Origin: a virus
Reading direction: 5' to 3' (one strand)
DNA: 64,000 nucleotides
IMG/VR virus record: IMGVR_UViG_3300022589_000001
Of the stretch, positions 55,996-58,611 are shown piece after piece; position 1 is the first letter of the stretch, and every line of letters starts with the position of its first letter. The position numbers and the translations under genes were made by a program. The notes below the pieces were generated by a model. That model was given only the letters and a program-made list of their open reading frames with translations, had not been told where the DNA came from and searched no databases.

Positions 55996-56024
55996 ATTAT
56001 ATCATATTTTTCATTAAATGTCAA
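55996..56024 (-). promoter_or_regulatory. Perfect consensus sigma-A promoter on the minus strand: TTGACA, 17 nt, TGaTATAAT. It lies upstream of dnaE.
   Basis: On the minus strand, ttgaca is the complement of 56019..56024 and tataat the complement of 55996..56001. The -35 box overlaps the stop codon of the 61-aa ORF. Confidence 0.75.
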
Positions 56025-56199
56025 CTGGTTGCCCGTCAGCTTCAAGTCTATCCAAAAGGACTTGTAAGATGTAGGCTGCCGCAGTAAAATCTGTTGTTTG
56101 GTCAAGCAAGAATCTGGCAAAAGCTTCACTCTTAACAATACGACTTACTTCATCTAAGTTAACTTCAACTTCCATATTCCAATCTATTTTTTCTGCCAT
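56014..56199 (-). CDS. Hypothetical small acidic protein of 61 aa.
   Basis: The ORF lies 1 nt after the upstream gene stop. Confidence 0.45.
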   Translation of the reverse strand: MAEKIDWNMEVEVNLDEVSRIVKSEAFARFLLDQTTDFTAAAYILQVLLDRLEADGQPVDI

Positions 56200-56200
56200 A

Positions 56201-56827
56201 TTATTTTACCTCTTTATAATAATACTCATACATTAACTTCCAAGTAGCAAACAAATGTCTGTACATCGGAGGAATCCACCAAGAGCTGCCACAGAGGACT
56301 ACTCTATCAATTTTATCAAGATATTTTTCTAATTTATAAAAATCAAATGGAAGCTCTAATACTTCTTGAGGGTAATACTTTGCGTCAATAATATCAGTGT
56401 CAAATTCTGAATTGCCATTAGCAACCCATGTGTAACTATTGATGCGATCTCGGTCAGTTAGATATTTTACCCAGTCACCAACGCTTGCAAAATCTAACTC
56501 TTCATCCCAGTGTTGACAAATATATCCATATCCAATGTCATGATGATAATCTACATTGATTAAATCAAATTTCTCTAAGTCAGCAGTACAATCTACAATT
56601 TCCGCATGATTATCAATGAAATAAAAAACATCTTTATCTAAGCGTTCAAAAAGTTTCATTAAAAACTCTGTTAAATTTTGATATAAACCAAGGTCGGCCG
56701 TAGCTCCCCACATATGAGGGAAATGAGTTGCCATATCTTCAAATTTATATTCTTCTCTAATAAAATTGTTATAGGTAGGTAAACTTAAATACATAATTGT
56801 ATCAAAATCAATAGTTAATACTGTCAT
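56201..56827 (-). CDS. Hypothetical protein of 208 aa with His/Asp-rich candidate metal-binding motifs (IDNHAEI, VDYHHDIGYG).
   Basis: The motifs were read from the translation and are reminiscent of metal-dependent hydrolase signatures. No family is assigned. Confidence 0.6.
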   Translation of the reverse strand: MTVLTIDFDTIMYLSLPTYNNFIREEYKFEDMATHFPHMWGATADLGLYQNLTEFLMKLFERLDKDVFYFIDNHAEIVDCTADLEKFDLINVDYHHDIGYGYICQHWDEELDFASVGDWVKYLTDRDRINSYTWVANGNSEFDTDIIDAKYYPQEVLELPFDFYKLEKYLDKIDRVVLCGSSWWIPPMYRHLFATWKLMYEYYYKEVK

Positions 56828-58005
56828 CTATAATTCCTCACAATCACTAATCTATCTACTGCACGAGTAGCGGCCGTATAGAGCCAGCGCGCATGCATTT
56901 CTGCATCACCTTTAAGCCACTCTTCAAGAACTAAAACTTTACCATATTCAGAACCCTGTGACTTATGGCAAGTAATACAATAGCCATAATCAAATTCTTT
57001 AGGCCTCCAAATCTTAGGGAAAGATTTCCAGTTTTTTTGATTTACTGTTGTTTCACCTTCGTTCAACAACTTATAATCCATATTTACATTTCTGAATATC
57101 AAATCTTGAGGTGACAGCATTAGGTCTTCATCCGTCACTCCCTCTGGTATAAAATCTGCTAACATTTGAGGTTTCAAGAAATAGTGGTTATCATTGAAAG
57201 TAACATTACTCAAATATCCGATACTTCCATTAACCATTACATCTCCCGCCTCGTTCGGATTCTCCCAGTCGTTGCGCACACAAATTACCTTATCCCCTTC
57301 GATAGGACGAGGGTCAGTGACGCCATGAATCATCTGGCGCATCTGATGATTTACCAGTCTTCTGGTTTCATTCTTCGCTACGATTACTTGGTCAGCCCAA
57401 GTAAGCATTCCGTCAACCATATCACACTGGTCAATAACCTGCACTTGCTTACCCTTAAAAAGTTCAAGAGGCTTGCCCGCACGAATGTCCATAGTCAACT
57501 TAATAATTTCACTATCTTCCTCTTGGCGCATAATCTCGTCCAAAAAGATATGAGCATCCTTAAGAACTCCATTATCTTTACCTACTGGTGGCAGCTGGAA
57601 CGGGTCACCAAGAGCAATAACATGAATATTATGAGAAAGAAGCAACTGCCAAATTTCATCAGGCAACATAGAAATCTCGTCTACAACAATTAACTTATAA
57701 GGATAAATTGGTCTACGAGGTCTGTGTGCGAAGGTGCCATCATTTCTCGGATAAGATTGATAAAGTAGTCTATGTGCGGTCATGGCATTGGGGCAACCTT
57801 TGTCCTTGAGGACAAGGGCTGCTTTGCCAGTAAAAGCGATATATGCAATATCGGTTTGACGGAGGTTTAGAGCGGATACAATGAACTTAACCAGAGTGGA
57901 CTTTCCTGTACCGGCGTAACCAGCAATACAGGTATATGGAGCGTCTTCATTGTAACGCTTTACAGCAAGCTCCAATCCTTCCTGTTGTTTCTTTGTTAAT
58001 TCCAT
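56824..58005 (-). CDS. RecD/Dda-like superfamily-1 DNA helicase of 393 aa.
   Basis: Walker A is GYAGTGKST and Walker B is LIVVDEISM. The C-terminal ITCHKSQGSEY is the RecD-family motif. Confidence 0.85.
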   Translation of the reverse strand: MELTKKQQEGLELAVKRYNEDAPYTCIAGYAGTGKSTLVKFIVSALNLRQTDIAYIAFTGKAALVLKDKGCPNAMTAHRLLYQSYPRNDGTFAHRPRRPIYPYKLIVVDEISMLPDEIWQLLLSHNIHVIALGDPFQLPPVGKDNGVLKDAHIFLDEIMRQEEDSEIIKLTMDIRAGKPLELFKGKQVQVIDQCDMVDGMLTWADQVIVAKNETRRLVNHQMRQMIHGVTDPRPIEGDKVICVRNDWENPNEAGDVMVNGSIGYLSNVTFNDNHYFLKPQMLADFIPEGVTDEDLMLSPQDLIFRNVNMDYKLLNEGETTVNQKNWKSFPKIWRPKEFDYGYCITCHKSQGSEYGKVLVLEEWLKGDAEMHARWLYTAATRAVDRLVIVRNYR

Positions 58006-58017
58006 TCATATTCTCCT

Positions 58018-58611
58018 TTATTCACAATAACAATCGGAATCATCATCGTCATCCCAATCATCATCTTCATATTCATAATCATCATCGTCGCTCGTCCACT
58101 CGGCGCTGTTGAATGCGGCAATGGGGTTCGAGAGATCGATATCTCGGCAAATCATGGTTTCATATGGGCAACCCCAAACGCAGCCTTCTACATAAAGGGT
58201 ATCTTCATCCCAATCAAAATAAATAGGACAGAAGCCACAGCCGAACTTTTTATCATCAATATCAACATATGACTTGGCTTCCATATCATCCAAGTTCACA
58301 ATAGTGATGCACTGGTAATCACCAGAAGTGATAATGTAATCTACCCCATTTTGTTCGACAAAAATTGCTTCAAAAGATGGGTAGTTGCGCACGAACTCAA
58401 ACATTACAGTACCATTACTGCAAATCTGAATGAGTGAAGAACCCCATACATGGTCGTCGGTAGCGTGCTTAAAACTCTGTTTAATAACACTATAAGGTTG
58501 AGGTAAATCTCTTACTTGATATGAAATATCCTTAACCTCATGAATAATATAATTTTCCAGTAAACGCTGCTTATCTAATAGTGCAACTTCTTGATAGTTT
58601 TGTCTTTGCAT
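58018..58611 (-). CDS. Cys-rich protein of 197 aa with an extremely acidic C-terminal tail (DDDDYEYEDDDWDDDDDSDCYCE). Function unknown.
   Basis: FGCGFCP...CVWGCP forms a putative Zn site. The tail is poly-Asp/Glu. Its start overlaps the upstream stop by 1 nt. Confidence 0.65.
   Translation of the reverse strand: MQRQNYQEVALLDKQRLLENYIIHEVKDISYQVRDLPQPYSVIKQSFKHATDDHVWGSSLIQICSNGTVMFEFVRNYPSFEAIFVEQNGVDYIITSGDYQCITIVNLDDMEAKSYVDIDDKKFGCGFCPIYFDWDEDTLYVEGCVWGCPYETMICRDIDLSNPIAAFNSAEWTSDDDDYEYEDDDWDDDDDSDCYCE

Follow-up and report, generated by a model that had tools for sequence, protein, structure and literature searches.

Ocr (T7 gp0.3) and ArdA, two DNA mimics, display their charge on a rigid folded surface, Ocr being all-helical and ArdA consisting of three alpha/beta domains. 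The acidic C-termini of T7 gp2.5, T7 gp4, T4 gp32 and the bacterial single-strand-binding protein (SSB) serve as replisome tethers, and SSB tails end in D-D-D-[IL]-P-F, placing a hydrophobic residue at the terminus (e.g. ...DDDIPF or ...DF). The C-terminal domain of GyrA is six-bladed, and its basic rim, around which DNA wraps, is autoinhibited by the tail. For E. coli GyrA, one report credits the C-terminal acidic-tail residues (∼35) with regulating supercoil levels (PMC6463007). The gene considered here, designated X, lies at 58018..58611 on the minus strand of IMG/VR virus record IMGVR_UViG_3300022589_000001, and "the window" refers to the whole 64,000-nucleotide (nt) stretch of this record that was analyzed. 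The window represents that arm of an SPbeta-like phage of an anaerobic host which is devoted to replication and nucleotide metabolism, and X encodes a small, extremely acidic protein that belongs, as judged by profile searches, to a large family described in no database (Pfam, NCBIfam, PHROGs or PADLOC).

The list of open reading frames (ORFs) and the raw sequence place an ATG start and a TAA stop (58018-58020) at the ends of X, giving a product of 197 amino acids (aa). That X is a real gene is established by 13 close homologues from metagenomes (41-98% identity), by a confident predicted fold and by a ratio of nonsynonymous to synonymous change (dN/dS) of 0.10 against the orthologue in locus L001 (compared loci are numbered in this way throughout), which reveals purifying selection. 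In the same comparison, dN was 0.16 for X and 0.03-0.045 for the helicase, DnaE, hydrolase and RecJ-like genes, so that at the protein level X has changed 4-6 times faster than its neighbors.

Predicted structure, conservation and charge delimit a folded core (residues 1-174; 58090..58611, minus strand), and sequence, predicted structure and charge delimit a C-terminal tail (residues 175-197, DDDDYEYEDDDWDDDDDSDCYCE; 58021..58089, minus strand), the protein ending in ...TSDDDDYEYEDDDWDDDDDSDCYCE. An earlier, sequence-only reading of this DNA had counted about 20 acidic residues among the last 23. The tail is indeed present and strongly acidic, but this was an overcount: the 23 residues comprise 16 Asp or Glu, three Tyr, two Cys, one Trp and one Ser. 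With 44 acidic residues in the 197-residue protein, clustering of at least 16 in the last 23 has a hypergeometric P of 2.5e-7. The tail is encoded by GAT/GAC/GAA-rich DNA, and residues 178-197 are predicted to be disordered, with a predicted local distance difference test score (pLDDT) below 50 in the AlphaFold2 model. X as a whole contains 22% Asp plus Glu and has a net charge of -32 and an isoelectric point (pI) of 4.05, the core alone contributing -16 and the tail -16. Because the core is itself net negative, the acidic tail does not mask a basic DNA-binding core.

A lack of such a tail in homologues was named in the sequence-only reading as a refuting outcome; most homologues carry one. 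At least 8 Asp or Glu residues were found among the last 20 in 65% of 94 short-form members; 57 of these 61 acidic tails also contain aromatic residues (2.5 on average), and similar DDW/DDY-rich ends were present in distant members. In long forms, an acidic stretch occupies the same position as the short-form tail and there constitutes a linker. Across the sequences compared, the tail is thus conserved in composition, whereas its sequence and length are variable. For short representative sequences of the family, the median net charge is -15 and the median pI 4.57; the clade to which the window belongs is the most acidic, with net charges of -28 to -34.

The AlphaFold2 model of X, built from a 14-sequence alignment, had a mean pLDDT of 84 and a predicted template modeling score of 0.79, and it contained 13 beta strands and two short helices. 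The core is predicted to be all-beta, with approximately three four-stranded blades and an N-terminal hairpin. The predicted blades are four-stranded, antiparallel and arranged radially, and the core is best described as a predicted propeller-like domain of ∼3 blades, which is all that 174 residues leave room for in the single chain modeled. No match to the model was found in the PDB by Foldseek at E values up to 1e-3. In BFVD, uncharacterized giant-virus proteins were the only good matches, the best being A0A7D3V5V8 from Fadolivirus (E=6e-8) and A0A1V0SA92 from Catovirus (E=4e-6), at 18-23% identity. Comparison of blade profiles with hhalign gave no repeat signal (P = 0.4-0.9), and neither X nor 67 family members matched a propeller repeat family in Pfam (WD40, Kelch, PD40, YncE-like and others). 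When the long form P0163 was modeled, the N-terminal domain was confirmed with pLDDT values above 90 and was followed by further strands and long helices, the C-terminal half being poorly supported owing to a thin alignment.

X contains nine cysteines (4.6%), among which the C-x2-C and C-x3-C pairs remarked upon in the sequence-only reading are present upstream of the tail as C125-x2-C128 (GCGFC) and C144-x3-C148 (GCVWGC). Their retention among 198 family sequences is very uneven: C128 is found in 195, C144 in 184, C148 in 103 and C125 in 25, and the other cysteines are sporadic. A zinc ribbon or Cys4 metal site was considered and rejected, given that four conserved cysteines were not found in the 198 sequences, that no zinc-ribbon Pfam match was obtained and that the predicted fold is propeller-like. 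Only C128 (codon 58228-58230, minus strand) and C144 (codon 58180-58182, minus strand) are conserved, so that the family is not characterized by a Cys4 zinc site, and the notion of a Cys-rich, Zn-ribbon-like core does not survive this comparison or the all-beta prediction. The signature that emerges from the same 198 sequences consists of W56, R75-N76-Y77, D98-Y99-Q100, G124-x-G126-F127-C128, G143-C144-x-W146, P149-Y150-E151, D159 and P163. Near-invariant positions include Y99 (195 sequences), R75 and N76 (186 each), Q100 (178) and E151 (160).

A profile search through 1.84 billion cluster representatives recovered 851 proteins at E<=1e-3, of which 390 were at E<=1e-10, from phages, giant viruses and bacteria. 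Short forms (170-215 aa), found in phages and low-GC contigs, consist of the domain and tail. Medium forms (∼245 aa) come from Planctomycetota, Verrucomicrobiota and Anaerolineae metagenome-assembled genomes (MAGs). Nine Sorangium chromosomes, as well as viral contigs of 220-450 kb, carry long forms (∼350-380 aa), in which an acidic linker connects the domain to a second C-terminal domain. In the bacterial medium and long forms, the propeller-like domain is accompanied by an acidic linker and by an additional domain at the C-terminus. Pfam gave no match for X at E values up to 1 or for 67 family members at up to 0.01, PHROGs and NCBIfam gave none for X or 67 diverse relatives, and a PADLOC scan of the 67 members returned a single marginal match (E=0.0057). 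A PDB sequence search with three family profiles (A1, A3 and A4) yielded chance-level matches only, tblastn of X against 50,697 phage records detected no copy, and a literature search found no paper on the family. With respect to known anti-defense and defense proteins, the family thus had no profile match in PADLOC beyond this marginal one and no specific solved-structure match.

The second domain of the long forms (∼190 aa) was seen in Sorangium chromosomes (L012, L016-L019 and L023) and in large viral contigs (L037-L043). It is marked by the motifs TFRReGxKLV, WVSxxE..RR, DPLY, GxTYDGWCPxF and FFEHSxEGMxxA. No Pfam or PDB relative was found for it, indicating a second uncharacterized domain.

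In uncultured relatives of the phage, the gene order is RecJ-like, lysozyme-domain, HD_4, X, helicase, further genes and DnaE, the lysozyme-domain and HD_4 genes being optional. The window DnaE is 39% identical to the DnaE proteins of SPbeta-type Bacillus phages and of Enterococcus phages, and genes for NrdD, NrdG, guanylate kinase, dUTPase and RuvC are located downstream in the window. In the SPbeta-type phage Goe13, the RecJ-like yorK adjoins the polymerase gene yorL and the X slot is empty; in Enterococcus phage VRE9_4, two tiny ORFs take the place of X within the same module. Since cultured relatives possess the module but lack X, X is not part of the core replisome but cargo, carried in a slot of variable content that is flanked by the RecJ-like exonuclease and Dda-like helicase genes. 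Other cargo in this slot comprises the lysozyme-domain gene and the HD_4 hydrolase-like gene.

Elsewhere, phage homologues with 42-60% identity to X reside in long arrays of small unannotated genes, with replication genes absent nearby. Recognizable members of these arrays are SocA_Panacea and DUF1848 (L011), NADAR and LPD29 (L009), NADAR and a weak Lar_restr_allev match (L050), and Macro and an integrase (L051). In L036 and L045, the gene immediately upstream of the X-family gene encodes Nuc_deoxyrib_tr; in L053, this domain is encoded two genes downstream. Four independent contexts have an ADP-ribose-processing domain 1-6 kb from an X-family gene: three have NADAR (L009 8922-9353, L050 1618-2355 and L026 4090-4545) and one has Macro (L051 5772-6242). 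These NADAR, Macro and Nuc_deoxyrib_tr neighbors may reflect either a functional link or a coincidence of accessory regions.

Several bacterial homologues have neighbors of the kind associated with conflict. The Gimesia homologue (L026) is beside an ApeA HEPN protein, NADAR and a resolvase, and the Anaerolineae homologue (L014) is beside an EcoRI-like methylase and a GmrSD enzyme. In Sorangium, one homologue (L012) adjoins an AAA ATPase and a DUF2357-PD-(D/E)XK protein, and another (L017) adjoins a type IV restriction enzyme (E=5e-189). When 129 bacterial neighbors were pooled and scanned with PADLOC, the pool as a whole gave strong matches to DpdF, a type II restriction enzyme and PsyrT.

The gene upstream of X (58611..59270, minus strand) encodes an HD_4-family phosphohydrolase of 219 aa with a RelA/SpoT-type hydrolase domain, resembling small alarmone hydrolases. 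The 1-nt overlap between its stop and the X start, as described in the sequence-only reading, is present as TAATG (58609..58613, minus strand): the HD_4 TAA (58613..58611) and the X ATG (58611..58609) have nucleotide 58611 in common, and the same arrangement is found in L001 and L003. A Shine-Dalgarno-like stretch, AAGGAAAG, precedes the X ATG by 8-16 nt; read directly from the sequence as AAAGGAAAG (58619..58627, minus strand), it is within the 3' end of the HD_4 gene. Independent initiation of X is therefore also possible, and although translational coupling is plausible, stoichiometric production of the two proteins, at a 1:1 ratio, does not follow from an overlap. Downstream, a 12-nt spacer (AGGAGAATATGA; 58006..58017, minus strand), with an AGGAG ribosome-binding site directly after the X stop, leads to the ATG of a Dda/RecD-like superfamily 1 helicase of 393 aa (56824..58005, minus strand), the most conserved neighbor of X in this phage clade. 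By pattern matches only, a transcription unit is predicted that contains HD_4, X, the helicase and two ORFs matching no known family, orf208 (56201-56827, minus strand) and orf61 (56014-56199, minus strand). Its putative promoter, TTGACT-17-TATAAT (59305..59333, minus strand; 11/12 matches, extended TG), was located before the hydrolase gene by consensus scan only.

Taken with caution, these observations favor an explanation in which X is a stoichiometric polyanionic binder of a nucleic-acid-binding target protein, active in phage-host conflict or DNA handling. X is an accessory protein, outside the core gene set, of a gut phage of the SPbeta-like type (∼120-135 kb), and it represents the short form of its family; it is predicted to be co-transcribed from its own promoter with the alarmone-hydrolase-like gene and the Dda-like helicase. 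Its domain probably carries a specific binding surface or pocket formed from the invariant R-N-Y, D-Y-Q, G-F-C, G-C-x-W and P-Y-E motifs. The protein would act by stoichiometric binding and not by catalysis: the folded domain would dock onto the target, and the polyanionic tail together with the acidic surface would fill the basic nucleic-acid-binding groove of that target as a competitor or mimic. The likeliest target would be a host nuclease, a restriction enzyme or another defense or DNA-handling protein encountered early in replication. The analysis establishes the gene and its conservation, the family, the predicted fold class, the conserved acidic tail, the lack of a conserved Cys4 site, the slot within the replication operon and the kinds of gene neighborhood, whereas charge-mimicry binding, a counter-defense role and any target are inferred; the counter-defense reading is adopted because of the extreme acidity, the conserved acidic-aromatic tail, the cargo slot, the faster evolution and the conflict-type gene neighborhoods. 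The earlier suggestion of a candidate anti-defense protein gains indirect support from gene context only, namely the cargo slot beside the alarmone-hydrolase-like gene, the accessory arrays and the bacterial defense genes.

A number of points weigh against this polyanionic-binder explanation. The functional evidence for X consists throughout of context and composition, and the enrichment of defense genes in the neighborhoods is suggestive only. In two Verrucomicrobia MAGs, a medium-form homologue is situated in a housekeeping neighborhood, between panC (pantoate-beta-alanine ligase) and nadB (L-aspartate oxidase) (L020 7106-10348, where it overlaps panC, and L025 7088-10402). A clearly acidic tail is missing from 35% of short-form members, and whereas known DNA mimics show their charges on a folded surface, half of the charge of X is on a disordered tail. 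The conserved residues R75, N76, Y77, D98, Y99, Q100, C128, C144, E151 and D159 would fit an enzyme or small-molecule pocket equally well. Finally, in the window's clade X is always in the replication module by the helicase, which also fits a replication role.

The last of these points leads to the possibility, considered unlikely, that X is a replisome accessory or adaptor, its tail tethering it to a basic patch on the helicase, DnaE or single-strand-binding protein and its domain serving as a hub. The RecJ-like-to-DnaE order, with X in its place, is maintained over DnaE identities of 94% down to 57% and X identities of 72% down to 36%. In the window, L001 and L032-L035, the gene that immediately follows X is the helicase, whereas in L008 it is DnaE. 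In L004, X and the helicase are separated only by a 271-aa ORF of no known family, which by eye resembles a mobile endonuclease, and the helicase is itself split by an HNH ORF. The helicase ribosome-binding site adjoins the X stop within one predicted operon. Such a role is, however, difficult to reconcile with the cultured relatives that have the same replication module and no X, with the homologues in L007, L009 and L011 (42-60% identity), which have no helicase or polymerase within 6-8 kb, and with bacterial homologues unlinked to replication genes. Moreover, SSB and gp2.5 tails end in a hydrophobic residue that is missing from the X tail, and X evolves much faster than the replisome genes.

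The helicase in L004 seems to be split into a 50-aa ORF (50% identity to the N-terminus of the window helicase), a 178-aa HNH-type ORF and the remainder. Together with the endonuclease-like ORF after X and a GIY-YIG gene before DnaE, the HNH-type ORF resembles homing-endonuclease or intron insertions (L004 6578-8099 and 9602-10171).

A similarly low likelihood attaches to X being an enzyme or binding a small molecule through a C128/C144 pocket, for instance as a hydrolase or sponge related to nucleotides or ADP-ribose, the tail then contributing solubility, regulation or a linker. In phages, giant viruses and bacteria alike (n=198), polar and Cys positions hardly vary, and nucleotide- or ADP-ribose-related neighbors recur: HD_4 in the window, NADAR in L009/L010, L050 and L026, Macro in L051, Nuc_deoxyrib_tr in L036, L045 and L053, and dUTPase or DCD. 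The acidic stretch of the long forms, moreover, is merely a linker to a second domain. Set against these observations, no enzyme family or solved structure similar to X was found, and neither a conserved His nor any other evident catalytic partner is present in the phage clade. Binding of anionic nucleotides by so acidic a protein is unlikely, and the conserved residues could be structural, contributing to turns and to aromatic packing between blades.

Somewhat more doubtful still is the proposal that the tail has no functional relevance, having arisen by slippage in GAT-rich DNA as a low-complexity extension of a protein that does something unrelated. The predicted disorder, the GAT/GAC/GAA-rich coding stretch, the variation in length (195 to 199 aa) and sequence among close homologues, and the roughly one-third of short-form members with no clearly acidic tail are what such an origin would produce. 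Acidity with embedded aromatics nevertheless recurs in lineages only 25-35% identical in the core, and long forms retain the acidic stretch at the same place, amounting to conservation at the level of composition across very deep divergence.

That X is an obligate partner or regulator of the alarmone hydrolase, co-made by translational coupling, is very improbable and largely refuted by gene distribution: despite the TAATG overlap in the window, L001 and L003 and the presence of both genes in one predicted operon, X has a Shine-Dalgarno-like site of its own, and HD_4 adjoins X, among the contexts examined, only in the window and the L001-L003 lineage, being missing from at least 8 others (L004-L006, L032-L035, L007, L009, L011, L050, L051 and L052) and split in L002 beside an intact X. 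The L002 gene (5376-6001) was called as ORFs of 39 and 163 aa, compared with the single 219-aa ORF of the near-identical L001 and L003, and its split is either a frameshift/pseudogene or an assembly error. Stand-alone phage small alarmone hydrolases neutralize all tested toxSAS toxins (toxic small alarmone synthetases) (PMC7229694). By analogy, HD_4 is a plausible counter-defense gene, which would fit the slot as a collection point for accessory genes.

Upstream of HD_4, a terminator-like hairpin with a 15-bp stem and T run (59444..59479, minus strand), again identified by consensus scan only, directly follows the lysozyme-domain gene and parts it from the HD_4-X operon. The lysozyme-domain protein (59481-60353, minus strand) has 290 aa, carries a hydrophobic stretch at its N-terminus that would be an anchor or signal (MKKKLNCLRIVGIVIILVALITT...), and matches Phage_lysozyme2 (E=2.5e-17). 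Its position between the RecJ-like exonuclease and the hydrolase is an odd site for a cell-wall enzyme; the gene is present in L001-L006 and absent from L032-L035 and cultured relatives. Before DnaE, a second promoter-like element, TTGACA-17-TATAAT (55996-56024, minus strand), has 12/12 matches and an extended -10 TG, likewise by consensus scan only. The two near-perfect sigma-70-type promoter matches and the terminator suggest that the replication arm is divided into several transcription units.

The ORF orf208 is very fast-evolving, with 30-37% identity to its L001 counterpart (neighbors, 94-96%) and a dN/dS of 0.37; in Enterococcus phage VRE9_4, a thymidine kinase gene is found between the helicase and DnaE genes, in the slot of orf208. 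Phage Phass-1, whose DnaE is the most similar among cultured or deposited relatives (39% identity), is annotated with genetic code 15 and has two suppressor tRNA-Sup-CTA genes beside the NrdD gene (L047 2429-2687), whereas the window reads cleanly in code 11. The Phass-1 polymerase region is annotated throughout as hypothetical proteins. On the plus strand, 35-44527 of the window contains very large ORFs of 2678, 1592, 916, 918, 1849, 619, 2487, 684 and 2023 aa, which presumably make up the region for structural and tail proteins.

If the proposed role is correct, a new fold and several hundred sequence clusters would be added to the few known polyanionic or DNA-mimic inhibitors with which phages counter host nucleases and immune systems, and the junction between the RecJ-like and Dda-like helicase genes would be a counter-defense cargo site in SPbeta-like gut phages, harboring the alarmone hydrolase, the lysozyme-domain protein and X. 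A more ambitious extension, for which confidence is low, is that X is the phage short form of a new and widespread family engaged in virus-host conflict: the phage short forms would be nucleic-acid-mimicking counter-defense inhibitors or decoys of a new fold class, and the bacterial medium and long forms, found beside restriction and abortive-infection genes, would be immune or mobile-element components. There is a modest chance that X founds a new class of conflict protein common to phages, giant viruses and bacteria. Whatever X does, its well-defined and confidently foldable domain, with a signature and short, medium and long architectures, could provide a new domain model. As a predicted natural three-blade propeller fragment with a conserved acidic-aromatic tail, it is also relevant to studies of propeller evolution and assembly.

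Comparison with beta-propellers, including assemblies of three-blade fragments (PDB 6r5z), is limited by the lack of a Pfam repeat match or blade sequence repeat in X, and ∼3 blades are too few for a closed ring in one chain; the phage short forms may assemble into a ring from three-blade subunits. The Fadolivirus and Catovirus proteins are probably family members, although they are longer than X (367 and 256 aa, respectively) and have no assigned function. In layout only, the C-terminal beta-pinwheel of GyrA is similar, being a propeller-like all-beta domain followed by an acidic tail (∼35 residues in GyrA). There is no sequence relation, however, and a GyrA-style autoinhibited DNA binder was rejected, the X core being acidic (-16) and not basic.

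With the tails of SSB, T7 gp2.5, T7 gp4 and T4 gp32, X has in common a disordered, Asp/Glu-rich C-terminus with aromatics, encoded in a phage replication operon. X differs in having no oligonucleotide/oligosaccharide-binding (OB) fold and in being absent from related phages with the same replisome genes. Tails in the X family end in DCYCE (X itself), TDE, NDE, DED and similar residues, and mimicry of an SSB tail was rejected on account of the wrong C-terminus. The SSB-type interaction tail invoked in the sequence-only reading is thus not what was found, the core being propeller-like and the end being ...DCYCE.

The likeness to Ocr and ArdA lies in small size, a pI of ∼4, a charge of -32 over 197 aa, mobile-element coding and an accessory context, and the proposed competition for a DNA-binding site would be the same mode of action. 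Membership in this group, as the sequence-only reading had implied, is not borne out, since neither a sequence match (Pfam, PHROG and NCBIfam) nor a fold match was obtained, and half of the charge of X is placed on the disordered tail of an all-beta domain. Only charge and context link X to Ocr and ArdA, and only composition links it to the tails of SSB and gp2.5. Its kind is that of acidic phage accessory proteins that may act as mimics.

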